A DNA stretch of 42,459 bases from a virus (IMGVR_UViG_3300031566_000116:1-42459); one strand, 5' to 3'. Shown: positions 5,715 through 39,285, counted from the first letter of the stretch. Numbers and translations are program-made. Notes: generated by a model from the letters alone, not told the origin.

Positions 5715-5940
5715 TTATAAAGTTAGTCTAAAAAATTCTAATTCCATAATGATTTTCTTACAATGCTCTAATTTTTCCGCTAATTCATCGCGCTTCATAT
5801 TAGTTAATATCAGTTCGTTATTGAGTCTACTTATCTCAGCGCTCATTGTTTCAATAGAGCTGAATACATCTACATCCTCGTTTCGTCCTTTTTTTTGTTT
5901 CTATCATTTTTGATAGGTACTCGTCAAGTGGATTTTTCAT
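5715..5940 (-). CDS. hypothetical coiled-coil protein with its reading frame broken at an A8 run
   Basis: ATG 5940 (MKNPLDEYLSKMIETKK...) opens 10 nt after the RHH gene stop and hits TGA at 5851. The +1 frame is open from 5900 to the stop at 5715 (GRNEDVDVFSSIETMSAEISRLNNELILTNMKRDELAEKLEHCKKIIMELEFFRLTL). The frames overlap at the homopolymer 5889-5896. Confidence 0.35.
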
Positions 5941-6138: not shown

Positions 6139-6176
6139 TGTTACTTTTGTGACGTTTAGCGAATTGTTATAGCCAA
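6139..6176 (-). repeat. 38-nt repeat copy A (TTGGCTATAACAATTCGCTAAACGTCACAAAAGTAACA)
   Basis: The 24-nt core TTCGCTAAACGTCACAAAAGTAAC (6163..6140, minus strand) is identical to 21360..21383 on the plus strand. Both copies have the same orientation relative to local transcription. Confidence 0.9.
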
Positions 6177-6353
6177 TTAAAATGGAGACATCTTCGCTTT
6201 TACAACTTCAATATGTTTATATCGTTCTTCGCTAAATTTATCTTTGTTATCTTCAAGTGTTTGCTCGTAATAACCTATCTTGAAAGTCATTACCATATTT
6301 TGCCATAAAAGAATTACAGCTACTGTTCCTAATAAAATCGCTAATGTTGTCAT
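6177..6353 (-). CDS. small membrane protein (58 aa, below the ORF-track cutoff)
   Basis: Hand translation gives MTTLAILLGTVAVILLWQNMVMTFKIGYYEQTLEDNKDKFSEERYKHIEVVKAKMSPF, with one N-terminal TM helix. The ORF is flanked by inverted AATTGTTATAGCCA(A/G)TTAA copies at 6162-6180 and 6365-6383. Confidence 0.5.
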   Translation of the reverse strand: MTTLAILLGTVAVILLWQNMVMTFKIGYYEQTLEDNKDKFSEERYKHIEVVKAKMSPF

Positions 6354-6369
6354 TTTAAAATAATTAACT

Positions 6370-6466
6370 GGCTATAACAATTTATAAAAATAATAGCGCA
6401 TATAGCCTTTGCGGTATTATTCATCTTATGTGGTTGCGCTACTATTCTTATAATAACGTTATAGGG
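6370..6466 (-). repeat. structured intergenic element E1 (box A CTATAAC / box B GTTATAG)
   Basis: Minus strand: CCCTATAAC-GTTAT-TATAAGAATAGTAGCGCA...TGCGCTATTATTTTTATA-AATT-GTTATAGCC. The 18-bp upper stem has 2 G:T pairs. The TAA in box A is the stop of gene 6459..6722. Confidence 0.8.
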
Positions 6467-6722
6467 CATTTAAAATATATACCCTTTCGGCTACCACATT
6501 GCTGTTGTAGTACTTGTATTCAACCTTTCTAAGTTCAAATTCATACTTACCGCCATTAATCAAGCCTTCAGGGTTTATTACCTCTATCTCATGCGTGCCT
6601 GTGCAATAATCATAACCACCACAGCAACACGTTTCAGGGTGGCAGTTACATCGCTCCTTGTAGCTGTAGTTGTATTTTAAGTAGTATTTATTATCCTTTA
6701 TTGTTGCTGTTCCTACTCTCAT
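6459..6722 (-). CDS. cysteine-rich small protein (87 aa)
   Basis: Track ORF. The segment CNCHPETCCCGGYDYCTGTH carries 6 Cys and 2 His within 20 residues. Confidence 0.65.
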   Translation of the reverse strand: MRVGTATIKDNKYYLKYNYSYKERCNCHPETCCCGGYDYCTGTHEIEVINPEGLINGGKYEFELRKVEYKYYNSNVVAERVYILNAL

Positions 6723-6736
6723 AATAAAAACGCCCT

Positions 6737-6862
6737 ATAACACTAAATATAAAAAAGCTGGGTGTTACGGGTCTTTTAAACCAGCATGCTACTAAGTTAG
6801 TTTTTGTGGTCTGCGAAAAGTTGTAGCTACTAATCCCAGCCATTTCATATTATTTCCGTTAT
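6737..6862 (-). repeat. structured intergenic element E2
   Basis: Minus strand: GCATAAC-GGAAAT-AATATGAAATGGCTGGG...CCCAGCTTTTTTATATT-TAGT-GTTAT. The 17-bp stem has 2 G:T pairs and 1 T:T mismatch. The TAA in box A is the stop of gene 6859..7071. TTTTT follows box B. Confidence 0.75.
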
Positions 6863-7071
6863 GCACCATAATCAGACAACAGGCAGTTGTAATCATTTAG
6901 TGCAGCATCAAGCAATGAATAATCTTCTACTTCTGTTGGGTCGCATTCATAACTGCCTGTTTTTAGATAATCAATAGTGATAAAATGGTCGTGTGTATCT
7001 ACGCCAAGTTTATCTAATCGTTCCTTTTCTGCTTCTAGTGCGGTGATAAGTTTTAATTTTCTTTCGTCCAT
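6859..7071 (-). CDS. hypothetical acidic protein (70 aa)
   Basis: Internal ATG at 7071 (MDERKLKLITALEAEKERL...) chosen. The longer track ORF to 7176 would run through element E3. Confidence 0.55.
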   Translation of the reverse strand: MDERKLKLITALEAEKERLDKLGVDTHDHFITIDYLKTGSYECDPTEVEDYSLLDAALNDYNCLLSDYGA

Positions 7072-7089
7072 TTTGTTAAATATTACGGT

Positions 7090-7187
7090 GCATAACACGG
7101 TATATATGTTATACGCCAATGAAGTGCTGTACTTAATTTTAAAGTTTGTGGTTAGGCGTACAACACATATACCCAACCGTTATGTGC
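7090..7187 (-). repeat. structured intergenic element E3
   Basis: Minus strand: CATAAC-GGTTG-GGTATATGTGTTGTACGCC...GGCGTATAACATATATACC-GT-GTTATG. The 19-bp stem has 2 G:T pairs. The element starts 3 nt after the stop of gene 7191..7394. Confidence 0.8.
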
Positions 7188-7190
7188 CAT

Positions 7191-7394
7191 TTACAATTCT
7201 GGATAATCAGACCTGTCCATTTTCATAGCACTTTTAAAACTATCTGCAAGTTCTTTGTTGCATTTTTCACATAAGTTACAGTCTGTAATTTTAACAAACT
7301 CTACCTTTTTATTGCTGCCACAAACGGCACATAACAATGTGTCATACGCCATTGGCTTAGTAGCTTTTGCAAGTGTTTCAAATAAATCATCCAT
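7191..7394 (-). CDS. small zinc-ribbon protein (67 aa)
   Basis: Track ORF with the Cys pairs CAVC...CNLCEKC. Confidence 0.6.
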   Translation of the reverse strand: MDDLFETLAKATKPMAYDTLLCAVCGSNKKVEFVKITDCNLCEKCNKELADSFKSAMKMDRSDYPEL

Positions 7395-7455
7395 CGGTGT
7401 TATCTTTAAGTTTTGTACTATTAATTATCACGCCAACAGTCGCATACACTCAACG

Positions 7456-7698
7456 TTAGGCTTCATTTGCTATCGCACCACAATTCCAATGTTCCCAATT
7501 TGTACATTTTCCTGTTTCTCTATTTACTCTACGCATCCACAGTTCAGTCACAGGCATTATTGCCGTGCCATTGGGAACTACACACTCCTTTTCTGTTTTA
7601 GTTTCTTTAAACTCATTTGAGCAGTTTGAACATACTGTATAATCACCGAAGTAGTAGAATTTATTCTCACCACATTCACATTTAATACATCCTTCCAT
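7456..7698 (-). CDS. small zinc-ribbon protein (80 aa)
   Basis: Track ORF with CIKCEC...CSNC. Its stop TAA lies inside GCCTAAC-GTTGA, a box A half-element. Confidence 0.6.
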   Translation of the reverse strand: MEGCIKCECGENKFYYFGDYTVCSNCSNEFKETKTEKECVVPNGTAIMPVTELWMRRVNRETGKCTNWEHWNCGAIANEA

Positions 7699-7734
7699 CT
7701 TTTTAGTTATTTATCCCACCACACAAAAACGAAA

Positions 7735-7852
7735 GCCTAACAAAGTATAAATGCCATTGTATCGGCTCATTTATGTAGTTAAGTGGTTATTATTAATATT
7801 TGTTTTTCAATTCAATTTCAGTTCTCAACGGCACTTATACAAACCGTTAGGC
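7735..7852 (-). repeat. structured intergenic element E4
   Basis: Minus strand: GCCTAAC-GGTTT-GTATAAGTGCC...GGCATTTATAC-TTT-GTTAGGC. It has a perfect 7-bp lower stem and an 11-bp upper stem with 1 G:T pair. It starts 1 nt after the stop of gene 7854..8081. Confidence 0.85.
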
Positions 7853-7853
7853 A

Positions 7854-8081
7854 CTATTGCTTTTGATCTAAATAGTTATCTACACATTCATCGTTTGCTT
7901 GTGATGTCTTGTCGCTTTCTGAATAGTCCGCAAAAAGCAACAGTTCACTTCGTTGCCTAACATTGTATAAAATCAATAAAGATTCTATCAATTCATCTTT
8001 GCGCTTCCTTGAAAGCATAGTCTTGTCTACTAGTTCTGTTATTTCTTGTTTCATATCTTTACTGTTTTTATACTTGTCCAT
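7854..8081 (-). CDS. hypothetical protein (75 aa)
   Basis: Track ORF in the same-strand array. No motif recognised. Confidence 0.6.
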   Translation of the reverse strand: MDKYKNSKDMKQEITELVDKTMLSRKRKDELIESLLILYNVRQRSELLLFADYSESDKTSQANDECVDNYLDQKQ

Positions 8082-8098
8082 TGTAGTTCATAAAAATG

Positions 8099-8344
8099 CT
8101 ATTCTTTATGCCTACATACTTCTTTAGTGTCTAACACAACCTCTTCATATCTACAACTACCTGAGTGCTTACAGTCGCATTTTAACGCAACCACAACACG
8201 CTGTATAGGTAAATTATTAACTATACTCAGTGCTTCACTTACTTCTTTCCTGCTTTGTTCGGAGTGTTGCTCTCCACCGTTTACCATGCTACTCAATAGT
8301 GCAATGGTGCTACGTAATTTATTTTGTTCGTCTTTTGTAATCAT
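8099..8344 (-). CDS. hypothetical protein (81 aa)
   Basis: Track ORF with a C-terminal Cys cluster CDCKHSGSC...C. Confidence 0.6.
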   Translation of the reverse strand: MITKDEQNKLRSTIALLSSMVNGGEQHSEQSRKEVSEALSIVNNLPIQRVVVALKCDCKHSGSCRYEEVVLDTKEVCRHKE

Positions 8345-8402
8345 CTTTAGTTCTTTTTATCCGTTAATAATCAACCCATACAGCCATCCATTATGGTTCA
8401 TG

Positions 8403-8693
8403 CTAAGAACCGCTACGTTCAAGTTCATCAAACAATTGATTTGCCATATCAACAGATAATTTTGACAGATAAATGCCCCAATGTTTTAATCCTTGGTATT
8501 CATCTTTTGGTATTCCGATATAATCAGCAGCAGATTGAATGCTTGCATTATTGCCCTCTGCAATTATATTTGCTTTCATTATTTCTAAAGCAAAATGTTC
8601 TTTTTTTGTAAGTCCAAAATAAACATCATGCTGAATAGTTCCATCATGATTTGTGTAAGGAGCTGGATTTTTAGGTGTTTCTGAATTTTTCAT
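8403..8693 (-). CDS. hypothetical protein (96 aa)
   Basis: Track ORF. No motif recognised. Confidence 0.6.
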   Translation of the reverse strand: MKNSETPKNPAPYTNHDGTIQHDVYFGLTKKEHFALEIMKANIIAEGNNASIQSAADYIGIPKDEYQGLKHWGIYLSKLSVDMANQLFDELERSGS

Positions 8694-8743
8694 TTTGTTT
8701 CATATTTAATTGATTAATAATTACTTTAATAAAGCACGAAACC

Positions 8744-8871
8744 ATAACACACGGTATAAAACAAAGCGGTTTCAGTGCTATTTTTTGGGCTTTGTTTTCC
8801 GTTCAAACTTCGGTGGTTGTTGACAGTTCATCGCTCGCAATCCGCTTCGATTTTATACCGCCAAACGTTAG
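8744..8871 (-). repeat. structured intergenic element E5
   Basis: Minus strand: GCTAAC-GTTTGG-CGGTATAAAATCGAAGCGG...CCGCTTTGTTTTATACCG-TGT-GTTAT. The 18-bp stem has 1 G:T pair and 1 bulged T. The TAA in box A is the stop of gene 8868..9155. Confidence 0.75.
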
Positions 8872-9155
8872 CGAGAATGAGAGCGATTGTCCGCAAAATA
8901 TGGAGCATCATAAACATTCTTGCCAGTTAAATCAGTTATTTTCTCGAAGTGATTGTATGGTTTGGTAAAACAGCCACCTTTACATTTTACTGTCATTACT
9001 TTATCCCAACATTCCATCACCTGCAGAGCATCTTTTTGCTGTGCCTTTGAATATCCTTGTAATGTTGATACGATAAAATAATCACTCTCGCTAACATCAG
9101 CTATGTTTAAGCTGGGGGTTAGCGTAATTTTCAAGTCCTCAATCTGTTTTTTCAT
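8868..9155 (-). CDS. hypothetical protein (95 aa)
   Basis: Track ORF. No motif recognised. Confidence 0.6.
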   Translation of the reverse strand: MKKQIEDLKITLTPSLNIADVSESDYFIVSTLQGYSKAQQKDALQVMECWDKVMTVKCKGGCFTKPYNHFEKITDLTGKNVYDAPYFADNRSHSR

Positions 9156-9224
9156 TTTGTGTATTTTGATACGTTTGTAATTTTAAATCCCAGCCTAAAC
9201 ATAGCTGTAGCGTTAGCAACAAGC

Positions 9225-9470
9225 CTAAGCATCCTGCATATATTCCGTAAGTTTTTTAAGTAAATTATTTAGGTACTCAACACCTATAGCCTTTGCATCT
9301 TCCAGTTCGTATTCAACGCCAACCCAATCATTGTTTATCATTACATCATAGCTAGGTCGGTCTTTCCAACTTTTCCATTCTATTATCATTCTACCTATTG
9401 GCGTTTCTGCAATCACATGGTCATAAAAACTTACTCCCTCGGTTGCTTTTGTTGGCTCTGTCCATTTCAT
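9225..9470 (-). CDS. hypothetical protein (81 aa)
   Basis: Track ORF. No motif recognised. Confidence 0.6.
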   Translation of the reverse strand: MKWTEPTKATEGVSFYDHVIAETPIGRMIIEWKSWKDRPSYDVMINNDWVGVEYELEDAKAIGVEYLNNLLKKLTEYMQDA

Positions 9471-9495
9471 AATATCTCTAGTTTAAAGGCCAGTT

Positions 9496-9589
9496 GCTAA
9501 CAATATGTATAGCAAAAAGCCGTAATTAATATTTGTTCTTCGATTGGTTTTTTGGTGGTACGGCTTCATGCCATACATTTAACGTTAGC
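9496..9589 (-). repeat. structured intergenic element E6
   Basis: Minus strand: GCTAAC-GTTAA-ATGTATGGC-ATG-AAGCCGTA...TACGGCTT-TTT-GCTATACAT-ATT-GTTAGC. It has a 6-bp lower stem and 9-bp plus 8-bp upper stems with 1 G:T pair. Confidence 0.8.
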
Positions 9590-10234: not shown

Positions 10235-10331
10235 ATAACTACGCACAACAACAGCTAAAAAACATAGCCAATAAGGCAGTAAGTAATTTGAAGCGTTCTA
10301 CATGGCTACGCTTCATAGCCCAAAGTTATAG
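10235..10331 (-). repeat. degenerate structured intergenic element E8
   Basis: Minus strand: CTATAAC-TTTGG-GCTATGAAGCGTAGCC...GGCTATGTTTTTTAGC-(14 nt)-GTTAT. The 16-bp stem has 3 G:T pairs and 1 T:T mismatch. An alternative inner hairpin TGAAGCGT/ACGCTTCA is possible. Confidence 0.5.
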
Positions 10332-11158: not shown

Positions 11159-11515
11159 TTACATTTTATTTATTCGTTCGTCGTTTTCGGTCACAATTAA
11201 CACCACTTTATTTTCTACTCCCTTCTTAGATGATAGCTTTACGCTTAATACAATGCTATAAGCGTCATCCTCAAACAAACAATCTTCAATCAGCTTATAC
11301 ATAGCCGCGCAATTTGACGCGTCCAATGGTCTTGTTTTAAACTCAAAATTAACTTCGACGTCGTACGCTCCTGATTTACTAAATGGCTTATATTTATTCA
11401 GCATTAATTTGTAGGTGTTTTTAATGTTATTTCTTACAGTCCAATGGGCTCCAGCATACCATTTATTTAATGATACTTTTGGTAGATTTTTAATTATTAT
11501 TTCGTGTCTTATCAT
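11159..11515 (-). CDS. rusA: RusA-like Holliday junction resolvase
   Basis: 118 aa. The N-terminal LPKVSLNKWYAGAHWTVRNNIK and central RPLDASNCAAMYKLIEDCLFEDD follow the RusA pattern (SxN..Y....R and D.DN.......D.L...DD). Confidence 0.6.
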   Translation of the reverse strand: MIRHEIIIKNLPKVSLNKWYAGAHWTVRNNIKNTYKLMLNKYKPFSKSGAYDVEVNFEFKTRPLDASNCAAMYKLIEDCLFEDDAYSIVLSVKLSSKKGVENKVVLIVTENDERINKM

Positions 11516-11786
11516 TATGGTGGTTTTCGTGGCATATTCTACAAAGTATAGTAATGTTATTAACGTCGTAGGCTAGCTCGCAATTCCCGTTCATTTGGCA
11601 ATCATTAACGCTTATGTCGTGCGAGCAATCTAAATAAGTTCCTGATGAGATACCGCAATGTTCGCAAAAATGGTAGCCGTGTTCGTTTATTTGCTCGTTC
11701 AGCTTCTCTTGTTTGGCTAACCTCACACGCCTATCAATTACATTTTTAGGTATGCTATTACCGTGTGAATCTTTGTAGCTGTTCAT
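11490..11786 (-). CDS. HNH endonuclease (98 aa)
   Basis: CEHCG...CSHDISVN...NITILCRICHENHH matches the HNH/zinc-finger nuclease core. Confidence 0.75.
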   Translation of the reverse strand: MNSYKDSHGNSIPKNVIDRRVRLAKQEKLNEQINEHGYHFCEHCGISSGTYLDCSHDISVNDCQMNGNCELAYDVNNITILCRICHENHHNDKTRNNN

Positions 11787-12399: not shown

Positions 12400-13398
12400 T
12401 TAAAATAATTGAGGCGTTCTTAATATTTCTAAACATCTCTTATTGCTCATATTTACATACTTCTGCTCTACATCAAAACCTATAAAGTTTCTACCTTCTT
12501 TTGCACTCATAGCGCACTCTGTACCACTTCCAGCAAAAGGAACAACTACAAGGTCATTCTTTCGGCTGCAAGTCAAAATTAAGGCTCTTGTAAGGGATTC
12601 AGGCTTTACCGTTTCGTGGTCGTATTTTGCGCCAGTTTTTACAGCTTCATTACTATAATTTAAAACCTCTTGTAAGTTAAATACATTGTTAAATGGTCGC
12701 CTTAGTTCTTCGTATTCCTTTCTAAGTTCTTCGTATTCCTTTCTAAGTTCTTCGTATGGTTTATTTAAGTATTCAAATTTTAAATACTCCCGAATTGTAT
12801 CATATTGTTCTTCTGTAATTACATTGTCACCATTTAGCCAATTAGAAACACAACCAGTTAACCCACCTGTTCGGCTTGGAAATAATTTAGCAATTTCTTT
12901 ATTAGTAATATTTGCGTTCTTAACCTCAACTTTCAAATACTTACTAAATGGGTTTTTTGGTTTTAAAAATTGTTCAAAAATTAATTCTCCTCCTGTTTTT
13001 TGTCCTCTTTGCTCATACATTAAAATCCTTTCGGTGCAAGGTGCAAAACTTCTTAATCCTTCGCTTTCTTCCAATCCCATAAAAGAGCCTTTATTCCAAA
13101 CTAAGCTATTTATAAGGTTAAAGTATTTATCAAGTATAATCTGAACGTATGCAATATTTTTAGATGAACCATACCAAAATAAAGTACCATTATCAGAAAG
13201 CACACGCTTGCACTCAATAGCCCACTTTTCAACATCTACTAAAAATTCATCTCTACTATTCCAAATAAAATCAAAGTCGCCTTTTACTCCAAAGTAAGGG
13301 CTATCTGCAATAATTAAATTACCTATTTTATCAGGCAGGTTATTATTTAGCCAATTGTCGCAATAAACCTTATTAAATTCCCTCATTTCTCTCATCAT
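12400..13398 (-). CDS. DNA methyltransferase (N6-adenine or N4-cytosine, beta class)
   Basis: 332 aa. A motif IV-like IIADSPYF precedes the motif I VVPFAGSGTE, the beta-class order of the N-4/N-6 methylase family. Carries an in-frame EELRKEY tandem repeat. Confidence 0.85.
   Translation of the reverse strand: MMREMREFNKVYCDNWLNNNLPDKIGNLIIADSPYFGVKGDFDFIWNSRDEFLVDVEKWAIECKRVLSDNGTLFWYGSSKNIAYVQIILDKYFNLINSLVWNKGSFMGLEESEGLRSFAPCTERILMYEQRGQKTGGELIFEQFLKPKNPFSKYLKVEVKNANITNKEIAKLFPSRTGGLTGCVSNWLNGDNVITEEQYDTIREYLKFEYLNKPYEELRKEYEELRKEYEELRRPFNNVFNLQEVLNYSNEAVKTGAKYDHETVKPESLTRALILTCSRKNDLVVVPFAGSGTECAMSAKEGRNFIGFDVEQKYVNMSNKRCLEILRTPQLF
12702..12759. repeat. 21-bp tandem repeat (about 2.8 copies) inside the methyltransferase gene
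   Basis: T(T/A)AGTTCTTCGTATTCCTTTC is repeated head to tail. It encodes PYEELRKEYEELRKEYEELRRP. Confidence 0.9.
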
Positions 13399-16435: not shown

Positions 16436-17068
16436 TTAGAAAAGTTTTAGTTGTCGTTTGTAATAATCAAAGGCAGCCAATCCGCTTTTAAAATAGTCCT
16501 CGTCTATTTCGCAAATGTCTAAATCAAAGCCCTCCATATCGCAAGCAATGGCATGTGTGTGGCTTCCTCCGTGGGTGTCTAGTATTTTCATTCCTTCGCT
16601 TGCGTATTTTTGCAGTGTCCACCTGTACAGATCGATAGGTTTTTGAGTTGGATGTATTCTATCTTTCTGCATTGCAGTTTTATTGTAAATCTTTGCTCCA
16701 TTTTTAAAAGAAGTCCAAGCCATTTCGCACATCGCAAAGCTCATATCTTCAGCGATTTTCTTATCCCATACAATATAGCATTTACAATTGCCTAACCTAT
16801 CTAAAAAGTAATTACCTCCCCATACAATCATATTCTTACTAACCCTCTTTAGCTCTTCAAAGTATTCGTTTGTTGGGGTGCTTTTATCCCAAACCTTTAT
16901 TTCGTATTTTTCTTTGAAATGAGTGCCGCTATTATTAATGTCAATTCCATAAGGCGGGTCAACTATTGCCAAATCGTAGTAGTTATCTGGCTTCGTTTTC
17001 ATAAACTCGATATTATCACAGTTGTAAAAACAAATGCCACCTCGTTGCTCTTTTTTAAATTCGCTCAT
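16436..17068 (-). CDS. DNA N6-adenine methyltransferase (beta class)
   Basis: 210 aa. Motif IV is IVDPPYGI, followed by the conserved HPTQKP and a degenerate motif I ILDTHGGSHT. Confidence 0.8.
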   Translation of the reverse strand: MSEFKKEQRGGICFYNCDNIEFMKTKPDNYYDLAIVDPPYGIDINNSGTHFKEKYEIKVWDKSTPTNEYFEELKRVSKNMIVWGGNYFLDRLGNCKCYIVWDKKIAEDMSFAMCEMAWTSFKNGAKIYNKTAMQKDRIHPTQKPIDLYRWTLQKYASEGMKILDTHGGSHTHAIACDMEGFDLDICEIDEDYFKSGLAAFDYYKRQLKLF

Positions 17069-27800: not shown

Positions 27801-30800
27801 TATACTAAATTTGAAAGTGTGTAAAATTTCAACCCCGCGCCTGTTATGGTCGAGCCTACTTGTGTTAAATCAGGCTTTAATTTATCCCCAACTACCCCGC
27901 TGGTATTGCTTATCGTTGAGGTCGTGCCATAAAACTCACCTACTAAAATCGTTATCGTTGCAATTGATACGCCATTCAATAAAACGCTTACTAAAATATT
28001 TGCATCGGTGGGCGCGGTGGTAACTCCAATTGCAAATGCGGTGAATGTTTGCGCTCGTGTTATTGTTATCGTTGCATCATTTTCAGCAGGTACTAAATCG
28101 CTTGTTTCGTCACTCATCGCAATAGATGGGTCGGGGTGATAAACGGAATCATTTATAGGCTCTATAAGAAAGTCGCCAGTAGTGTAGCCAGCCCCTATGC
28201 GAGTTACAAGCGATGAACTCGGCACGCTTAGTAAGATAGAACCGAGTGTCTCTTCTATATCTATTGTTAAACTGCCAACGACTAAAACTTGTTTACCTAG
28301 CTGCCAATTTACCCCCAAACTTGGATAATTAGATGTTAAAACCGCGATTAATTTAGTCATCGACAAATCGACAAGTTTTACCCAGCTACCATCTCCTCCG
28401 TCGTCTGGTTTTACCCCCGTCTCATTGCTTGAATTAAAGCTGTAAACAGCTTGCTCATCTGTTACGATAACATCATCCCCGTCGCTGTAATTTGTGATAC
28501 TACGCAATGAGTTTTTAGTTAGTGAAGCAATAGAGGATGAACCAGCCACCGTTGTGGCAGTTGTTCCTATTCGCTCCCAACTGCCTGTGGGGTTGGTTGT
28601 TTCGTCGTACAAATCCGCTTCGGGATTAATCCCCTGAGCTACGTCAACGCGCGACAAATACAAGTAGTTAGTTTGAAAATCAACATCGCCAGAAGCTAGA
28701 TTTACGTAGCTGACATAGCTGTTAATTCGATATCCTAAAAATCCATCTGGCGCGACATTCGCAATATCAAAAGGCTCGGTTGTTTCAACATCTATAACAG
28801 TAACAGAACCACCGCCAGCGGCTTGGTTAAAGCCTAGCCAACATTGGCCAGTATCTTGTGATTCCGATTCCGATGCAAGAAGCCCGCTGCCATTTAAGCG
28901 CGTCATCCCGATATAATACACTTCGTTTCCGTAAATAACACTATTTACTCTCACCTCACCATGTCCTCTTCGACCAATTCCATTGTGATAAATCCCATCA
29001 AATGTGATGATTGAGCCAACTGCTAAATTCCCAATAAAACTAGCAATCGAGCTGCTGTTTTGGGTTGAATTGAAATATGATCTATGAATATACATTTCAG
29101 TTGCCAAGGTAAAGGTGTTGTTAAAACCGAACTGATTTTCGCTTGGCAATGTGACAATACTATCATTAAAATGATACCTATATCCAACCGAACTTGGCAA
29201 ATCTATTGTAATATCCGCTGCGGCTGCGATTGTTAAGTCCTTATTTGGAAATGTGTAGGTATAATTAGCTACCAACGACTCAGGGTTAAGCGTTGCATAT
29301 TTTGTACGTGCAGCGTTATATATGCGTCCTCGCTTACTCTCCATTTCTAAATTCAAATCGGCTTGATTTTCGCTTAATAGTGTAGTGGTTGGCACAGTAA
29401 CCGAGTTAATGGCTGTTATGTCATCTAGGCCAGCAATAGTAATATCTTTATCTTGAATAGTTAGCTCTCTAGTTGTGCCAGTTGATACTCCCGCTACATT
29501 TAGATTAACTATTTTTGTGACGTCGGTAGCATCTGAAACTGCAAACACTCCAGAACTAACAGGCCATGAAACACCGCCGGCTCCAGTTACTCCACCCACT
29601 ATAATGCCAGGCTTTGCACCTCTTAAATCTGTTGTTTCCTCAACAATCCAAGTATTTACTGAATGCTGAATTAATGCCTTACAGATTAAAAATCCAGTAC
29701 CTACATAGTCCGTTGGAAAGTTGTAATTAGTGTAACTATTTTCGTCAGATGAGGCATCTGCAATATTAGCATAAGAGCCCCCAGGCAGTAACATCATTAA
29801 CCTACAATCTCTGTCATTCTCAGAGACAACGCCAAAAAATACTACATTGAAATATTTACCAAGTGCCGCGCCTGTGCTGTCTATCGTCGTAGCGTTTAGG
29901 TTTGTAATTCTGTTGTAGGGCGTAGTGGGGTTGTTTACTACATAAATGCCGCTCCCTGTTTGGCTGTTAAATATAGGAAACGAATGAGGGTGCAGTTGTA
30001 GCACATTGCCAGCGGTTGTTGAAATATATATGCTATCAGGTGAGCCAGTCACGCGGGTAAACGTATAAGCCACACCGCTTTTATAAGTGGATTGCTGTTG
30101 TCTTACCCAATAATTTAAGTGTGATAAATGCCCATTATCTAAAGCTTTTTCAATATGATCAGACCACGCATGCCCTCTATACAATCCGTAATTCTGAACG
30201 CGAAGTGCGCTCGGAACAGTTGCGCTGAACAATGGGATATATTGCGTTAATGATGGAAAGTCAGCAGTAACACCAGTAGCTTTTTGAATTACTAAATTTT
30301 CATCTATCCAAATAACATTTTTAACGGGTACCGTATCAGTTCCAGCGGTTAATATTATTGAGGTTGGGACTGAAAACTCTTTAACTGCATTTTTAAAGTA
30401 ACAAACAATCGCGCCCGACGCTGAGTTATCAACACCCAGCGTAACGATTGACCCGTCACTTGTCACATCTAAGGCTACACTATACTGAGTGGTTCCCGTG
30501 TAGAAATTAAACGCGTCCTCTTTATTACCTTTTTTTGCAATGCGAACTTTAAAAATACCAGTAGTTACTCCAACTTTCATAACCTGCCCCATCTCAACGC
30601 GATAGCTTGGAGTGTTAGGAGGTGTTAATGTTATTTCGCCAGGCGTTTCAGATAAAAAGTAATTTTGATTAGCGGTTAATAATGAGGTGTCCGTGTCGTT
30701 AATGTCGCCAAATGGAACACACTCGCCAGCCTCATCTATTCCAAAGGGGTGTGTAGTCATTGCTAAAATGCCAGTTGCAGCCATTTTAATATTAGCACCT

Positions 30801-31504
30801 GCTAATGCTATCGTTGGTAGCCCTGTTGTAGCATCAAACCCGCTGATATAAACAGCCTTTAACTCATCAATGACAACGCCAGTTTTATTAATAACTCTAT
30901 CCCACATCTCAGAGCCTATCTGAAGGCTGGAATTGGGTCTATCATTGTATAAAGTTAGGCGTTTTAAATCCGAGTTGTAGTATATCTTTCCTTCTTCGTA
31001 CGTTTGCTCTAGTGCAGTTTGAGGATTTAGAACAATAGAATTAAACTTATTCCCCCCCTGCGCTATCCAAGTTCCAGCGGCTAATTCAGCATCAAAATCG
31101 GATGAATTAAAAGGCAGTGTGGTATCTGATTTTAATAGATACAGATCGTCACCTTTAGCCACTAATGTAGCCGTGTTATTGTATACACCAACCTTCCACC
31201 TACTAAAATTTGAAACGGTTGCTTTTGATACTTCCGTCCAGTAAGAAGAGCCATCAGAAGGGGGGTTGCCTTCGTTACCATTATCATCTGAAGCCCATAG
31301 TTTATCGGAATACTCAACAATATAACCACTCACATAGGTTTCAGCACTATACCATGTTGGGATACTCTCATTACCACCTCCAATATCGCTAAGTTTTAAC
31401 AGCTCTAAAGCGTTGGTGTCGTTGTTTAACACTAGCATTTTTCCGTTTGTTATCTCCCCTAGAGCTTCGGGATAATCTCGATAATCTTTTACTATTATTG
31501 CCAT
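27800..31504 (-). CDS. tail fibre / host-specificity protein (1234 aa)
   Basis: This is the largest ORF, downstream of the baseplate-position genes. It is Ser/Thr/Gly/Asn-rich and looks beta-rich. Assigned by size and synteny. Confidence 0.55.
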   Translation of the reverse strand: MAIIVKDYRDYPEALGEITNGKMLVLNNDTNALELLKLSDIGGGNESIPTWYSAETYVSGYIVEYSDKLWASDDNGNEGNPPSDGSSYWTEVSKATVSNFSRWKVGVYNNTATLVAKGDDLYLLKSDTTLPFNSSDFDAELAAGTWIAQGGNKFNSIVLNPQTALEQTYEEGKIYYNSDLKRLTLYNDRPNSSLQIGSEMWDRVINKTGVVIDELKAVYISGFDATTGLPTIALAGANIKMAATGILAMTTHPFGIDEAGECVPFGDINDTDTSLLTANQNYFLSETPGEITLTPPNTPSYRVEMGQVMKVGVTTGIFKVRIAKKGNKEDAFNFYTGTTQYSVALDVTSDGSIVTLGVDNSASGAIVCYFKNAVKEFSVPTSIILTAGTDTVPVKNVIWIDENLVIQKATGVTADFPSLTQYIPLFSATVPSALRVQNYGLYRGHAWSDHIEKALDNGHLSHLNYWVRQQQSTYKSGVAYTFTRVTGSPDSIYISTTAGNVLQLHPHSFPIFNSQTGSGIYVVNNPTTPYNRITNLNATTIDSTGAALGKYFNVVFFGVVSENDRDCRLMMLLPGGSYANIADASSDENSYTNYNFPTDYVGTGFLICKALIQHSVNTWIVEETTDLRGAKPGIIVGGVTGAGGVSWPVSSGVFAVSDATDVTKIVNLNVAGVSTGTTRELTIQDKDITIAGLDDITAINSVTVPTTTLLSENQADLNLEMESKRGRIYNAARTKYATLNPESLVANYTYTFPNKDLTIAAAADITIDLPSSVGYRYHFNDSIVTLPSENQFGFNNTFTLATEMYIHRSYFNSTQNSSSIASFIGNLAVGSIITFDGIYHNGIGRRGHGEVRVNSVIYGNEVYYIGMTRLNGSGLLASESESQDTGQCWLGFNQAAGGGSVTVIDVETTEPFDIANVAPDGFLGYRINSYVSYVNLASGDVDFQTNYLYLSRVDVAQGINPEADLYDETTNPTGSWERIGTTATTVAGSSSIASLTKNSLRSITNYSDGDDVIVTDEQAVYSFNSSNETGVKPDDGGDGSWVKLVDLSMTKLIAVLTSNYPSLGVNWQLGKQVLVVGSLTIDIEETLGSILLSVPSSSLVTRIGAGYTTGDFLIEPINDSVYHPDPSIAMSDETSDLVPAENDATITITRAQTFTAFAIGVTTAPTDANILVSVLLNGVSIATITILVGEFYGTTSTISNTSGVVGDKLKPDLTQVGSTITGAGLKFYTLSNLV

Positions 31505-31507
31505 ATT

Positions 31508-33580
31508 TTAAATATTATCTCCTATTGCTATTTCCGTGCTACTTCCTATTACTTGCTGTGATTCCGTCACTAAACCGCTGTAAGTTGTGATGCTCTCACT
31601 ATCTTGTTGGTAACTTCTATTCACTTTTTGGAATGGATTGCGTTCTGATATTCTACTTTCAACCTCTAAAGATTCGCCCCTTACAAATTTAACATTATTT
31701 ATTAACAAATTACTCATGCCCGACGCGTACGCTATTTTTCTTACGATGTAGAAAGGATAAAGCATACCTTCAAAATTAAAACTTGTTCTTATTAATGTCT
31801 TTAAAATCGTTTTCTTTCCGTAATCGGTCTGGAAATCATCTGAATCCTCACTAATAACACCGTCAATAAACCTACTTGCGAGCCTTAACCGAAAGACTGA
31901 GCCTGTTGTAAAATCTAATTCCCCTGTATTTTCATCATTCGAATAATCAAATATAACTGTATTTTTTGTTGATACTTTTTTAATCGGTTCACTATGCCAT
32001 GAAACATCGGGGTAATTTAGGTTATCATCCGTCGCGCTTATTAAGATTGAATAAATATTACCTAAAGTTAAAGCTGAACCAACAAGACTAAATTCATATA
32101 CATTGTAATCTAGTTTGTTGTAACTAGTTCGGATAATCCCAGTCGTTGGGTCGTTACCAGTAAACGTAAGGTCTAAAACCACACCCCAATACCCCGTGTT
32201 CTGGTCTTTATAAGTTCCTAAAGTAGAATAAGAGCCATTTAGTAGCGTAGTGCCTGTAATAGTAAACAAAGTACCTACCTTTGCGAATTGAAACAATCCC
32301 TTTGTAGGGTTTGAATATGAGCCGTTTGATAAGGTTGTATCTACATCATAAGTATTGCCGCCTGTAAAATACATTAAAGTCTTGCCGTCGTACTCACTCC
32401 CAGCACTCGAAATAGGTCTAAATGAGCAGTCTCTCAAATCCTCTAGTAAGATATTATCAACTATTTTAGTATGTGTTAAGTTTAGCTCGTTACCTTCACA
32501 ATCGGTTGCTAATATGCTTATGTTATCGTAGTTTGTATTTATTTGATTAGTGATAATATCACACTCAGAAATGAGTTGATTGTATGGTTGCCATTCCACA
32601 TTTGGAAATTTACCTTGTTCTTTTAATTCTGAGAACAAAGCATTATCCCAATTAGCTATATTGTTGCAATCATCAAAATTAGTAACAGGAACAAATCTCA
32701 GCGGGTTTGCTTTTGGAATGTTAAAATAAGCGTCTGGCTTGTCTGCGGATATTCCCACTATTTCAAAACCTATGCTTTGTACCGCTCCGAAATTGTCACG
32801 AACATACATAGTATAAGAGCCAGCCAATATGCCCGTAAAGCTAGCTTGTGAATACCATACTATCTGATCTAAACTATATTCTTTAATTGTAGAAATATCA
32901 CCTAATACAGTTGAGGTATTAGCTGTTACCGTTGCTCCATCTGCCGACTCAATAACTCCACAAGCTGAGATAGTCCATTGGTCAACCGTGGGCATTGGGT
33001 ATGTCGTTGAGAAATCGTCACTATCTGTTATCGCTAGATTAACAAGCGGTAAAGGTGGCTGCCTTAAATAGTCGAAAAACAAATCCTCTTCAAATTCTGC
33101 AAGCTTCACGACTGGCGCGGTAATGTCAAAATCTGAAGCCCCGTAAGCTACTGTAATATTAAATCTTGCGTGAGTGTTTCGATCTGCTGCGTCTGCTTGT
33201 TCAGCCGTTACGCTTGTAACATTAAAAACTGGCAATGGTTCGCTGGATTCGGTATATACAGCGGTAATATTTGCAGGAAATGATAAGGCCGTGAAATGGT
33301 CTGAATAATCAACCGCCTCAATGGTTATAACATAGCCCTCTTCGCTATTACCCTCTCGACTTAGATTAAAATAACCCCCGTAATCCGCTAACAAGGCGTT
33401 ATAATAGCCGTTAGAAGTCGGCTCTAGCGCGTCTGTTATTGTGAATTGAAACGGAGTTGCACGAACAGAGGCGCCAGTCTCGGTCACTCTCAATCCGTTC
33501 AAAGTAGATGAGAAAGCTAATACATCACCTATCTCAGATTCTGCCGCCCATGTAAGTTCTAATTTTGCGTAATTTGCCAT
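31508..33580 (-). CDS. tail tip / baseplate protein (Tal position, 690 aa)
   Basis: This is the second gene after the tape measure. Assigned by synteny only. Confidence 0.45.
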   Translation of the reverse strand: MANYAKLELTWAAESEIGDVLAFSSTLNGLRVTETGASVRATPFQFTITDALEPTSNGYYNALLADYGGYFNLSREGNSEEGYVITIEAVDYSDHFTALSFPANITAVYTESSEPLPVFNVTSVTAEQADAADRNTHARFNITVAYGASDFDITAPVVKLAEFEEDLFFDYLRQPPLPLVNLAITDSDDFSTTYPMPTVDQWTISACGVIESADGATVTANTSTVLGDISTIKEYSLDQIVWYSQASFTGILAGSYTMYVRDNFGAVQSIGFEIVGISADKPDAYFNIPKANPLRFVPVTNFDDCNNIANWDNALFSELKEQGKFPNVEWQPYNQLISECDIITNQINTNYDNISILATDCEGNELNLTHTKIVDNILLEDLRDCSFRPISSAGSEYDGKTLMYFTGGNTYDVDTTLSNGSYSNPTKGLFQFAKVGTLFTITGTTLLNGSYSTLGTYKDQNTGYWGVVLDLTFTGNDPTTGIIRTSYNKLDYNVYEFSLVGSALTLGNIYSILISATDDNLNYPDVSWHSEPIKKVSTKNTVIFDYSNDENTGELDFTTGSVFRLRLASRFIDGVISEDSDDFQTDYGKKTILKTLIRTSFNFEGMLYPFYIVRKIAYASGMSNLLINNVKFVRGESLEVESRISERNPFQKVNRSYQQDSESITTYSGLVTESQQVIGSSTEIAIGDNI

Positions 33581-35785: not shown

Positions 35786-38220
35786 CGTGCAAATCGTTTA
35801 ATTAAATCATCCGTTCTTTTAAGACTATCTAAGCCGCTGCGTTTTTTAGGCCTGTTGTTTTTCATCTCATTAATCATTCTATCACTATGTCTTTCAAATG
35901 ACTTCTCAACTGCAGCTGCTATCATCTTACTTTGCGTATCATCATTGATATTAACAACTGATTTTATCATCTCTTTTCTTGTGATATTATCTAAGATTTT
36001 AGCGGACTCAACACCACTCCAAACCTTCGCACCCTTATACTCATCACCAAATAAGGTAGGTTTATCTACAAGCGAAATTTTACCTTTATGCTTCATAAAT
36101 TCAGGGCGTTTTTCACCAGCTAAGAAACCGCCATCAGGGGCTGAGTTTACTCCTTTATCAAATGCGGGTAAAGACTTCGCTAGTATAGCAGCTGCAGCGG
36201 CTGCTCCAGTACCTATAACTAATGGTATTTGAGACAATGCAATAGGGGCAAATGCTGCTGTAAGAGGATTAGCCAATAAGACTGCAGCTGTCGCTTGAAT
36301 AGCTGCCACCTTTTTGGCTGTATCAATAGCTACTTCTGTGGCTTGCACGGCCTGACCGAATAAAAATTGTTTCTTTTCAAGCTCCCTTTGCTTCTTCTCC
36401 TTCTCGTTTATCTTCGCGTCGCGTTCGGCTTCAATAGCTGACCTTACCTCATCATCTAATTTGTCGTTATCTAAACGTGTGTCATATTCTGCTGTGATGG
36501 CTTCCGTCTCATCGGTTAGTTTAGAGATGGCATAATCAAACAATGAATCCCCAATTGATACAGCCGTGTCAAATCCCTGTTGTAATAATTCAGCTTTTAA
36601 CTCCTTTCTTCGCTCCTCATGCTCTTGCAATATACGCGTTTTCTCTTCTTCTTTTTCAAGATAAAGCTCTATTTCGGCATCGTTTAACTTGTCCATATCA
36701 GCAAGCACAGCCTCGTCATCTATTACCCCAGCTTCTTTTATTTGCGCTGGTACTTCCGCTAATTTTTCCTGAGATACTTTTAATTCTTTGTTTTTTACTA
36801 TTGTTTCATCAGTAGTTTTGTTTAATGCTTTTTGTAAAGTATTTCTTTGGTTTGCGCTCCTTCTCGTTTGGGTAAAAAAGTTCGATTCAGCATCTATCAC
36901 CTCAGAATATGCAACTACTACCCTATCAAGTTCAGAGTCTTTAGTCTTGCCGTACTTCTTAAACACCTCTAAGTACGCAAGCTCTTCCTTTGTTAATGAT
37001 GCAAAATGTTCTTTGTGTTGTTTTAAAACAGACTTGTAATAATCAGCGTCGCCAGTTTGTCTAGCTGATTTTCTCTCAGCTTCTAAGTCTAACGTTCTGA
37101 TAGCTCGCTTCCTTAAATCTTCTTGCGCATCGTAGTTCTTAATAAAAGATAATGTTTCTTCTTCGTTTAATCCAGTTAACGCTTGAACCACCGCAAGTTC
37201 AGTGCTTAGTTGTTGGTTGGCTATCGAAACCCTTTGTTCTGCTAATTTTTTCTCAATTGTTATAATTTTTTCGGACGCAACTATTCTCTCATCTTTAGAA
37301 AGATTTACATTGTCAACATCTTGTTTTAATTCCTCAGTTTCCAAGCGCCCTTCTTTTTCTGCAATAGTCATGCCTCTACGCCTATCACCCAAATCATCTA
37401 AGGCGGCCGCGTATGCCTCACCAGCTTTTATAGCTTTTTCAAAGTTGCTTATCATATTCAACAAGTCTCCAGTTGCGATTGACTTCTTAAAACTCTCCCA
37501 GCCTTGTTTCATGCCTTCAATAGTCATAGCGAAGGAGTCACCGCTCACTTGTGTAGAATCGATGACCTCCTTCCCTACTCTCATTGCTCCACTTGCGGCT
37601 GCGATTGCGGCGGTGACTGCTAACAATCCCCCTTTTACTTTATTCCATGCGTCTGTATATTTTCCTACACTCCTTTGATTTTGTCCTAATGAGGCATCTA
37701 TTTTTTTTAACTTAGCGTCTAATTTTGTAATTTCCGATGCTGCTGTTTTAAATTCGTTAGAGCTTAACCCGAATTGAACCGCGACATCTTTTGCCTTGTT
37801 TCTTAATTCTGTTAATTTTTTACTCTCCTGAGCGTAAGCGCTTGTAAGTTTCGCGGTGGCGGCTGTTTGTTTCGCGGCTATTGTTGCCTCCTGTTGTGCT
37901 GTCCTATTTTTGGTCTGCATCGCCTTTTCTTGCGCGATAGTAGTGCGTGCGACATCTTGCTTTAGCTTCTCTTCCTTCTGTAATAAATCGAGCTGTGTTT
38001 TAGTTAGCGCGTTTGCTTCATTTTTGATAGTAGATAGGTCTTTAGCTGCTTTATTATATGCGGCTATTCCTGTATTGTTAGCAAACGTCTCGTTTAATTT
38101 CTTGCCGTCTGCAATAATCAAATTAAGATTGTCGATGGTAGTTTTTAGCGCTACGTTAAGGTCTGTAAATGCCTTTTGAACACTGCTATCTATTACATTA
38201 CTACTTTTTATTGGAGGCAT
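35782..38220 (-). CDS. tail tape measure protein
   Basis: 812 aa. It is strongly helical with Ala/Lys/Glu-rich coiled-coil stretches and a hydrophobic Gly/Ala block (PLVIGTGAAAAAAILAKSLPAF). Sits downstream of the chaperone pair. Confidence 0.8.
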   Translation of the reverse strand: MPPIKSSNVIDSSVQKAFTDLNVALKTTIDNLNLIIADGKKLNETFANNTGIAAYNKAAKDLSTIKNEANALTKTQLDLLQKEEKLKQDVARTTIAQEKAMQTKNRTAQQEATIAAKQTAATAKLTSAYAQESKKLTELRNKAKDVAVQFGLSSNEFKTAASEITKLDAKLKKIDASLGQNQRSVGKYTDAWNKVKGGLLAVTAAIAAASGAMRVGKEVIDSTQVSGDSFAMTIEGMKQGWESFKKSIATGDLLNMISNFEKAIKAGEAYAAALDDLGDRRRGMTIAEKEGRLETEELKQDVDNVNLSKDERIVASEKIITIEKKLAEQRVSIANQQLSTELAVVQALTGLNEEETLSFIKNYDAQEDLRKRAIRTLDLEAERKSARQTGDADYYKSVLKQHKEHFASLTKEELAYLEVFKKYGKTKDSELDRVVVAYSEVIDAESNFFTQTRRSANQRNTLQKALNKTTDETIVKNKELKVSQEKLAEVPAQIKEAGVIDDEAVLADMDKLNDAEIELYLEKEEEKTRILQEHEERRKELKAELLQQGFDTAVSIGDSLFDYAISKLTDETEAITAEYDTRLDNDKLDDEVRSAIEAERDAKINEKEKKQRELEKKQFLFGQAVQATEVAIDTAKKVAAIQATAAVLLANPLTAAFAPIALSQIPLVIGTGAAAAAAILAKSLPAFDKGVNSAPDGGFLAGEKRPEFMKHKGKISLVDKPTLFGDEYKGAKVWSGVESAKILDNITRKEMIKSVVNINDDTQSKMIAAAVEKSFERHSDRMINEMKNNRPKKRSGLDSLKRTDDLIKRFAR

Positions 38221-38809
38221 CAGCTATGTATTTAATGTAGTCGTTTTCATATGTTAGGAATTGCAATAAACTTATCTTCTTAGTATCAATTGCAACCTTC
38301 CTATATTTTTCAATTGCATTTATTAATTGCTCATCAGTCACGCTTTCGCCTACTGTTTTGCTATTCTTTGCCTTTTCAAGCTCTAAAATGTCTGTGACTA
38401 ATGTATCTAACGAGCGTTTTATATTAACACATTGAGCGTAAACATCCACACTAAAATCAATATCGTAGCCTAGTTCGCTCAGAAAATCAATACTAACACC
38501 TATTAAATCGGGTTTATCTGAAAACATCTCAACCTGAGACAAGGCAATTAAACAAAGCGTGCGCTCGGTGTCTAGTTCTAATATCTCACGATCTAAATCA
38601 AAGTAGGCGCTTGCTGTTGGTCGCTTTACAATCTCGTCATTATATTGAGAAAGTATTTTATCATAAGCTGCCTGTACATCATCGGTCAGTTTTATACTAT
38701 CAATATCAAGGTAATTATCAAGATATACTAAGTATCTTAAATCGCTCTTTCTGTTAGCTTGTTGCCAATTCCAATATGGCACATTATCAATATCATTAAA
38801 TACTCTCAT
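38201..38809 (-). CDS. tail assembly chaperone, T-like part (202 aa), also reachable by a -1 frameshift from the upstream ORF
   Basis: Position between the major tail protein and the tape measure. Its ATG lies in the -1 frame immediately after the slippery G_GGT_TTA of ORF 38806..39237. Confidence 0.5.
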   Translation of the reverse strand: MRVFNDIDNVPYWNWQQANRKSDLRYLVYLDNYLDIDSIKLTDDVQAAYDKILSQYNDEIVKRPTASAYFDLDREILELDTERTLCLIALSQVEMFSDKPDLIGVSIDFLSELGYDIDFSVDVYAQCVNIKRSLDTLVTDILELEKAKNSKTVGESVTDEQLINAIEKYRKVAIDTKKISLLQFLTYENDYIKYIADASNKK

Positions 38810-39237: not shown

Positions 39238-39285
39238 GGTTTAAAATTACGAATGTTATTAGTTTTAAAAAAGTTGAAAATAAAA

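Follow-up and report, generated by a model that had tools for sequence, protein, structure and literature searches.

The stretch analysed here, a whole metagenomic contig of 42,459 bp of viral DNA (IMGVR_UViG_3300031566_000116:1-42459; JGI 3300031565; hereafter the window), carries on its minus strand an array of nine hairpins between 6375 and 9587, with small open reading frames (ORFs) of unknown function between them. The window holds a tailed-phage gene set (small and large terminase subunits, portal, tape measure and endolysin) together with the replication and recombination genes for Erf, a single-stranded-DNA-binding protein (SSB) and a primase-helicase; a junction endonuclease-like protein is also encoded, and two DNA methyltransferases (12400-13398 and 16436-17068) both lie outside the array. 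The primase-helicase is closest to versions from Cellulophaga, Tenacibaculum, Riemerella and Flavobacterium phages, and judged by its genes the window is a Flavobacteriia-type siphophage. Nearly all genes are on the minus strand and the genome has strong strand skews, with the array located between the replication genes and the terminase. Megablast of the array region against GenBank phages gave no match. We consider the hairpins, with a probability of roughly three in four, to be attC-like recombination sites that divide mobile gene cassettes in an integron-like array of this phage.

The hairpins were detected with a strand-neutral comparison of the two arms, in which every 5′ half was aligned to its reverse-complemented 3′ half, and with a scanner for TAAC, stem and GTTA, which gives about 0.25 matches in mononucleotide-shuffled windows. 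A strict search for the integron cores RYYYAAC...GTTRRRY fits only one window element, after which the cores were relaxed to TAAC/GTTA. All nine hairpins share the asymmetric frame TAACG...TGTTA, and seven of them have TAAC...GTTA cores and a core-to-core length of 87-126 nt. From the first element of the array to its end, the features are as follows.

Ei, 9498-9587, minus: first clear hairpin of the array; TAAC at 9587-9584, GTTA at 9501-9498; 22-bp stem with two G:T and one T:T; 5′ flank GATCGC without upstream partner; DNA z-score -3.5 sense versus -3.0 antisense
Eh, 9092-9215, minus: 124-nt hairpin; 24-bp stem with one G:T, and one A:C at the stem's loop edge; 62-nt loop containing the ATG (9155) of ORF 8868-9155; 5′ flank GTTGC complementary to the Ei 3′ flank GCAAC
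Eg, 8745-8870, minus: hairpin with one G:T and one extra T
Ef, 8194-8393, minus: degenerate 200-nt hairpin with cores TAAT...GTTG; 22-bp stem (8384-8363 / 8221-8200) with two G:T and one T:T; 141-nt loop containing the start of ORF 8099-8344; 5′ flank AACCA complementary to the Eg 3′ flank TGGTT
Ee, 7738-7849, minus: hairpin framed by GCCTAAC...GTTAGGC, with two to three G:T
Ed, 7332-7458, minus: weak gapped hairpin of 127 nt, about two G:T and two T:G in gapped alignment; loop and 3′ arm overlap the start of ORF 7191-7394; 3′ flank TGTGCC complementary to the Ec 5′ flank GGCACA
Ec, 7093-7182, minus: hairpin of 90 nt, the type most frequent in the family; stem positions 7 and 12 are G:T
Eb, 6738-6861, minus: hairpin with two G:T and one T:T; the TAA within TAAC is the stop codon of ORF 6859-7071
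Ea, 6375-6461, minus: 87-nt hairpin, last of the array; 19-bp stem with G:T at positions 7 and 12; DNA z-score -4.0 sense versus -1.6 antisense
6166-6176, minus: hairpin-less terminal half site GGCTATAAC, the closing site of the last cassette; 19 nt with 95% complementarity to the flank after Ea
9225-9470, 8868-9155, 8403-8693, 8099-8344 and 7854-8081, minus: cassette ORFs of unknown function in the sense of the hairpins, part of 6177-9470
7456-7698, 7191-7394, 6859-7071, 6459-6722 and 6177-6353, minus: further cassette ORFs, part of 6177-9470
10246-10328, minus: probable decayed element upstream of the array (TAAC...GTTG, read directly), with about four G(5′):T(3′) positions; the flanks of the ORF after it are inverted repeats

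None of the window cassette ORFs matches a Pfam family, and among more than 300 collected loci there are almost no homologues of the cassette proteins, which makes the same cassette in a different array not demonstrable.

Strand asymmetry and the G.T pair

The initial annotation had counted 12 wobbles in the stems, each with G on the 5′ arm and T on the 3′ arm of the sense strand, and no A:C mismatch. The bias is real: careful computational alignment yields no comparable number of A:C mismatches and our recount gives about 14 G:T against at most one A:C, although the totals differ slightly from the earlier ones and the earlier element numbers have no one-to-one mapping to ours. In the upper stems there are two such pairs each in Ea, Eb, Ec, Ee, Ef and Ei and one each in Eg and Eh; over all nine hairpins the sense-strand wobbles total roughly 14-16, compared to one A:C and zero C:A. 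The few further A:C or C:A cases fall outside TAAC/GTTA, in flanks where no pairing inside the hairpin is expected. An additional G.T pair at the junction, formed by TAACG opposite TGTTA, is present in all seven elements with intact cores (Ef is degenerate and Ed was not displayed in register).

The sense strand also folds better. Comparing minimum free energies of both strands and of shuffles, we found the sense strand lower as DNA in eight of eight window elements, with differences of 0.7-3.0 kcal/mol. When the window is pooled with a distant relative (L049) and the Polaribacter phage P12002L (L061), the sense strand is lower in 20 of 22 elements as RNA (mean -5.2 kcal/mol) and in 19 of 22 as DNA (mean -2.1).

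A search of IMG/VR with the pattern TAACG-N2-6-GTATA-N40-70-TATAC-NN-TGTTA places the window hairpins in a large family of at least 120 loci, with lengths that peak at 86-90 nt among the matches listed. The 115 good stems contain 1,887 Watson-Crick pairs, 235 G:T, 21 T:G, 3 A:C and 12 C:A. On the gene-sense strand, a site consists of a 5-nt flank, TAAC, a G with 4-5 nt of unpaired spacer, a 15-20 bp stem starting at GTATA, a variable loop, TATAC, a 1-3 nt spacer, T, GTTA and another 5-nt flank. The consensus stem of 15-18 bp has no bulged (extrahelical) base, and its asymmetry lies in the G.T wobbles and in the unequal spacers (5-6 nt versus 1-3 nt). The array of L049 has ten like elements, six of which were scored by the scanner (13 G:T, 1 T:G). 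Cellulophaga phage phi10:1 is without such elements, and Rfam 15, at gathering and permissive thresholds, matched neither the window elements nor those of eight related loci.

Aligning 141 unique elements of 84-92 nt from viral contigs gives an 18-bp consensus stem with 260 GU, 13 UG, 6 AC and 7 CA. One position stands out: column 24/82 is G.U in 139 of the 141 sequences, with both bases conserved, while the adjacent pairs covary freely. A second wobble position is GU in 88, AU in 26 and GC in 22, and compensatory change is abundant in the stem (one example pair is AU in 72, UA in 29, CG in 22 and GC in 15). The window wobbles occupy the same registers as those of the family, at positions 7 and 12, or 5 and 10 in a version shorter by 2 bp. 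This strong covariation among the homologues, the invariant G.T and the lower folding energy together uphold the earlier proposal that one strand is selected to fold, as opposed to a symmetric double-stranded palindrome. What has to be corrected is the notion that the wobbles are merely tolerated, as at least one of them is an invariant identity position.

The loops have recurrent sequences of their own. Those of Ee and Ei have in common a 21-nt motif, AATYGAARAACAAATATTAAT (sense strand; window 7792-7812 and 9525-9545), and resembling motifs, ACAAATATTAAT and AACTTTAAAATTA, recur across the hairpin family.

Cassette boundaries and the probable crossover point

The flanks of neighbouring hairpins match across the ORF that separates them. 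For 302 elements in 111 loci (n = 183 cross-ORF pairs), the 5 nt after GTTA form on average 4.02 of 5 Watson-Crick pairs with the 5 nt before the next TAAC, perfectly so in 63%, compared to 1.80 of 5 for the two flanks of the same hairpin and 1.72 of 5 for random pairs. This pairing is the signature of integron cassettes and points to a crossover within the core site. Within the window the rule holds at eight of nine junctions and fails between Ef and Ee. The Ef-to-Ee interval (8082-8098; 7849-8194) contains two ORFs only 17 nt apart, which suggests that a hairpin was lost or that two cassettes fused.

Copies of single elements locate the boundary more closely. Ec has copies of 88-96% identity in seven other loci (eight with the window), with unrelated ORFs on both sides, and the similarity among these loci starts exactly at TAAC and runs about 20 nt beyond GTTA. 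Likewise, Eg has copies with 82-90% identity in L233 and L293, where homology extends from TAAC to more than 30 nt beyond GTTA, and Eb has an 80% identical copy in L077. The arrays of the window, L049 and P12002L all end in a hairpin-less flank-TAAC, and the 5′ flank of their first hairpin is unpartnered.

In a class of elements of about 125 nt, the following ORF starts inside the unpaired A-rich loop and reads through the 3′ arm, such that this arm and the GTTA core are translated, with TGTTA read as Val-Leu (window 9092-9215, 7332-7458 and 8194-8393; L049 5091-5217, 7915-8027 and 8241-8358; and many further loci). The recombination site would thus also provide a translation start and about 20 N-terminal codons, and an ORF that begins inside the loop must form one unit with its hairpin. 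Taken together, the terminal hairpin-less sites, the ORFs starting in loops and the homology edge at TAAC argue that crossover takes place on the sense strand, within the 5′ TAAC, and that hairpin, leader and ORF make up one cassette unit.

Two contigs of 6.2-6.4 kb from other samples (L383 and L384) carry the same array and end near the Eb/Ea region; these ends may be assembly breaks at the repeated hairpins or strain variation. Some cassettes of relatives appear to encode DNA methyltransferases, from sequence only in L049 (5643-6401, 6613-7218 and 8305-8988) and as annotated in the record of P12002L (29248-32126 and 38118-38816).

The associated recombinase and the polarity of the sites

A locus from Chryseolinea (L197), found by the hairpin pattern, contains three hairpins, a ParE toxin cassette and an adjacent tyrosine recombinase, homologues of which are encoded in about 24 of the loci found by pattern, including eight viral ones. 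Six phage loci have a co-directional array, with as many as 13 cassettes, then a hairpin-less flank-TAAC-TAYTRTATAT and, directly after this terminal site and on the same strand, the recombinase gene (266-287 aa, about 270 aa); a major head protein and terminase are present in loci with recombinase and array. The half site of the window at 6166-6176 occupies the place where these relatives carry an attI-like site and then the recombinase gene.

The association also holds in reverse. Starting from the recombinase and detecting hairpins strand-neutrally, we collected at least 521 relatives in IMG/VR; 80 recombinase loci have 219 hairpin elements upstream compared to 4 downstream, and 54 of the 57 loci with at least 1.5 kb of upstream sequence carry at least one element. 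On the recombinase-sense strand of the 80 loci, GT mismatches outnumber AC ones by 337 to 14.

By inspection, the relatives' recombinases have the catalytic residues R-K-H-R-H-Y. They are closest to XerA (PDB 4a8e), with XerA/XerD nearest in sequence, and their alignment with the integron integrase IntI4 (2a3v) breaks into two parts, between which residues 182-258, the IntI-specific domain, are left out. Their scores stay below the cut-offs of both NCBIfam models, integrase_gron (150-192 versus 265) and XerA/integron integrase (172-205 versus 220). On this sequence evidence the associated enzyme is a short Xer-like tyrosine recombinase without the IntI-specific domain; one gene for a putative cognate enzyme is at L302 7001-7804.

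Among the phage elements, 105 of 115 are in the sense of the flanking genes and one is antisense; the G.T strand is therefore the coding strand, and transcripts contain stable hairpins too. In the bacterial loci L197 and L199, the layout is that of a canonical integron, with cassette genes, including the ParE toxin, antisense to the TAACG...TGTTA strand. The same is found in genome bins of candidate-phyla-radiation bacteria and of archaea, where cassette genes are antisense and, as in Chryseolinea, the recombinase is encoded on the TAACG...TGTTA strand, and Bacteroidota chromosomal elements keep the G.T at position 12. Since polarity tracks the recombinase and not the cassette genes, the wobble is best explained as a feature of single-stranded DNA rather than of mRNA, with perhaps an additional RNA-level role in phages. 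The inverted orientation of phage ORFs likely reflects that the recombinase gene and the cassettes must run co-directionally with phage transcription.

Three-way-junction elements of 80-97 nt occur in L199, L205, L223, L244, L255, L267, L283 and about 40 other genome loci, in candidate-phyla-radiation, DPANN-archaeal and some gammaproteobacterial bins. They have the frame TAACG..GTATA..TATAC..TGTTA and the canonical integron layout, have no Rfam match, and their loci encode recombinases of about 270 aa homologous to the phage ones.

Proposed mechanism, alternatives and related systems

In the mechanism that we propose, the recombinase would bind the G.T-bearing strand when it is single-stranded and folded, cleave in the 5′ TAAC and exchange that strand with either the terminal site or a second hairpin. 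As in integrons, a unit made up of hairpin, leader and ORF would then be inserted, or would leave as a circle. The G.T wobbles would exist only in the folded form, the complementary strand presenting A.C mismatches instead, and together with the lopsided spacer they could allow the enzyme to recognise the right folded strand and to reject both its complement and duplex DNA, which in canonical attC sites is the task of bulged bases. We infer this role from the invariance of the wobbles and from the fact that neither bulged bases nor the IntI domain is present.

The window array is without a recombinase and in this respect resembles CALINs, which are attC clusters without integrase (Cury et al. 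2016, PMC4889954). It could be mobilised in trans by a co-infecting phage or by the host, or be a frozen remnant; lacking both the recombinase and a consensus terminal site, it may be inactive. Within the literature searched, the only study to touch this hairpin family is Qi et al. 2023 (PMC9892861), which reported attC clusters without integrase in virulent phages, P12002L included. Its P12002L_attC1, predicted as attC by HattCI (PMC9892861), is a member of the window's family. P12002L has further family elements beyond the two reported (about 38035-38095, 38870-38935 and 39120-39250, minus), and attC2 of the same study covers the hairpin-less terminal site of one P12002L array in the opposite orientation.

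Several observations weigh against interpreting the window array as a set of recombination sites. Searches with PHROGs and Pfam over nearly all ORFs longer than 90 aa, and tblastn with the relatives' recombinase, found no tyrosine recombinase in the window. Its terminal site reads TAAC-AATTCGC, unlike the attI-like ext-TAAC-TAYTRTATAT of relatives, and no recombinase gene follows. Near-identical contigs from other samples keep the same cassette order, with no gain or loss caught, and the near-identical hairpins adjoin unrelated ORFs, which leaves the origin of the cassettes unaccounted for by the cassette model. The folding gain of the sense strand as DNA (0.7-3 kcal/mol) is small, and the long-loop elements Ed, Eb and Eg fold overall no better than shuffles. 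Finally, P12002L_attC1 gave no verified attI1 junction with IntI1 in Escherichia coli (PMC9892861), a result tempered by the fact that IntI1 is not the cognate enzyme.

Of the competing explanations, the one that fares best, though we consider it unlikely, is that the hairpins act mainly as RNA in a polycistronic transcript, as terminators, RNase processing sites, stabilisers or translation-start platforms, with G.U kept as only the sense transcript needs to fold. The gene-sense orientation of 105 of 115 phage elements, the mean RNA folding gain given above, the T-rich 3′ arms that follow a GC-rich upper stem and the start codon of the next ORF in the unpaired loop of the 125-nt class would all suit such a role. 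It does not, however, predict pairing of flanks across an ORF, breakpoints at TAAC or the constant placement and direction of the elements with respect to a recombinase gene; intrinsic terminators do not typically have loops of 30-140 nt, no Rfam family matches, and bacterial relatives carry the same frame and G.T on the strand antisense to their cassette genes. The initial annotation had left open whether the elements fold as sense-strand RNA or as one specific DNA strand, and it is the DNA strand that is favoured by the recombination boundaries, the link to a tyrosine recombinase and this antisense placement.

Much less probable still are small non-autonomous transposable hairpins, of the IS200/IS605, repetitive extragenic palindromic (REP) or miniature inverted-repeat transposable element kind, that insert beside TAAC, or shuffling modules resembling the promoter-early stem-loops (PeSLs) of phage T4 that move by homologous recombination. 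Nearly identical hairpins do stand in many unrelated contexts, are strand-specific and abut a tetranucleotide, and the phage encodes Erf, SSB and the junction endonuclease-like protein. Yet the enzyme associated with the arrays is a tyrosine recombinase, with no Y1/HUH transposase near them, and independent insertion leaves the match between a 3′ flank and the next 5′ flank unexplained. In the window, no recombinase signature, whether HUH, Y1 or another, is seen in the small ORFs beside the ends of the array. As for the PeSL version, hairpins within one array are too dissimilar for homologous recombination, and by eye no Bacteroidetes promoter consensus (TTTG / TAnnTTTG) is consistently seen in loops and 3′ arms.

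We give slightly less credence again to the G:T excess being a passive mutational footprint on ordinary palindromes, for instance from C-to-T deamination of one single-stranded arm. The constant placement of G on the 5′ arm and T on the 3′ arm, the decayed element near 10246-10328 with its four or so such positions and the strand skews of the genome would fit, but drift would scatter the wobbles and correct them to A-T or G-C. Instead, they sit at a fixed column in 139 of 141 sequences beside covarying neighbours, which excludes drift as the cause, and their polarity follows the recombinase gene and not the orientation of the cassette genes.

The least credible alternative, double-stranded palindromic binding sites or cruciforms for a dimeric protein with incidental asymmetry, has in its favour that the TAAC/GTTA cores and the GTATA/TATAC boxes are inverted repeats, and is contradicted by the conserved asymmetry (TAACG versus TGTTA, spacers of 5-6 versus 1-3 nt and the G.T positions) and by a freely covarying stem and long variable loops unlike sequence-specific duplex recognition. 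The earlier rejection of protein-binding palindromes was thus right about the duplex, whereas protein-binding sites are still expected in folded, single-stranded form.

Returning to attC-like sites, the correspondence with integrons is extensive. Both have imperfect hairpins of about 60-140 nt between inverted AAC/GTT cores, with one strand as the substrate, a second inner box past an unpaired spacer and a variable loop; the sequence that follows GTT is already part of the next cassette, the TAAC core contains stop codons, some cassettes have no ORF and, in the family, a terminal hairpin-less site adjoins a tyrosine recombinase. In both, structure is conserved rather than sequence, as covariation indicates, and one strand is preferred. 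Unlike in integrons, phage ORFs lie on the folding (bottom-like) strand, with the site upstream of the ORF and sometimes supplying its start codon; the canonical arrangement, with the cassette ORF on the top strand and attC downstream, is seen in the bacterial relatives L197 and L199 and not in the phage arrays. The stems are without the bulged extrahelical bases that, in classical attC sites, are read by the IntI-specific domain; they have the invariant G.T instead, with the extra unpaired bases on the 5′ side, and the family recombinase of about 270 aa is without that domain. For attCaadA7, we take the listed primer strand to be the bottom strand. It reads TCTAAC-G...T-GTTAGAC, with the same G.T junction as the window hairpins (PMC9892861, Table S3). 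Strand-specific attC folding that depends on unpaired features is itself established integron biology (PMC5027507, PMC6393395).

Other systems match in part. CTX phage integrates via XerCD at dif, and there, as is proposed here for the family, the substrate of an Xer-type tyrosine recombinase is a site formed when single-stranded phage DNA folds; the CTX phage, however, has a single site for chromosomal integration and no cassette arrays. The duplex site of Xer/dif systems (28-30 bp, two 11-bp arms, a 6-8 bp centre, one per replicon, used by XerC/D, XerA, XerH or XerS) is not matched either, as family sites are hairpins of 87-200 nt in arrays of up to 13, and Xer/dif recombinase genes are not known to lie beside site arrays; only the recombinase sequence is Xer-like. 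The pdif modules of Acinetobacter plasmids are also discrete gene modules between short recombinase sites in many contexts, but in place of 90-nt hairpins that all point one way they have 28-bp duplex sites, which alternate in orientation and are used by the XerCD of the host. PeSL cassettes of T4-type phages, reportedly described by Arbiol et al. in 2010 and said to shuffle ORFs, likewise place stem-loops between small accessory genes in a plastic phage region; they differ in carrying a promoter, in being thought to use homologous recombination between similar copies and in having neither the core-site crossover signature nor a dedicated recombinase. IS200/IS605 and REP/RAYT (REP-associated tyrosine transposase) systems, which use HUH Y1 transposases and short stems, have in common with the family strand-specific single-stranded DNA hairpins with functional mismatches, cleaved beside a tetranucleotide; such transposases were not found near the arrays, and those systems show no cassette flank rule.

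More tentatively, at somewhat below even odds, the window may belong to a large class of integron-like platforms with a short Xer-like integrase and bulge-less hairpins, marked in the Bacteroidota/phage type by an invariant G.T as a likely strand marker. Complete versions with inverted polarity would reside in Bacteroidota phages and versions with canonical layout in candidate-phyla-radiation bacteria, DPANN archaea and Cytophagia, and the class could stand to classical integrons as a sister or a precursor and offer phages a route dedicated to the exchange of accessory genes. The literature searched contains no paper on short Xer-like recombinases with such arrays or on inverted-polarity phage arrays. 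IntegronFinder 2 found almost no integrons in Bacteroidetes, and the additional domain is reported for archaeal integron integrases; because the integrase of such platforms is without this diagnostic domain, they would escape standard integron finders. Integron integrases are of Xer ancestry according to Escudero et al. 2016 (PMC4792948), and a conserved G.T in place of bulged bases and the IntI-specific domain would be a testable alternative solution to strand choice that bears on their evolution from Xer recombinases. If this reading holds, site-specific cassette exchange, and not illegitimate or homologous recombination alone, builds part of the hypervariable region of small genes in many marine and freshwater Bacteroidota phages, and the methyltransferase cassettes of L049 and P12002L suggest that the system may move counter-defence genes.

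The surroundings of the array offer minor observations. Past it, an intergenic segment at 5874-5933 (minus) gives a weak Hammerhead_1 match (16.6 bits, E = 5), far under the gathering score and probably noise. Upstream, a 118-aa ORF (11159-11515) without a Pfam match adjoins an ORF just upstream of the array (11490-11786) that by eye has an HNH-like Cys/His pattern.

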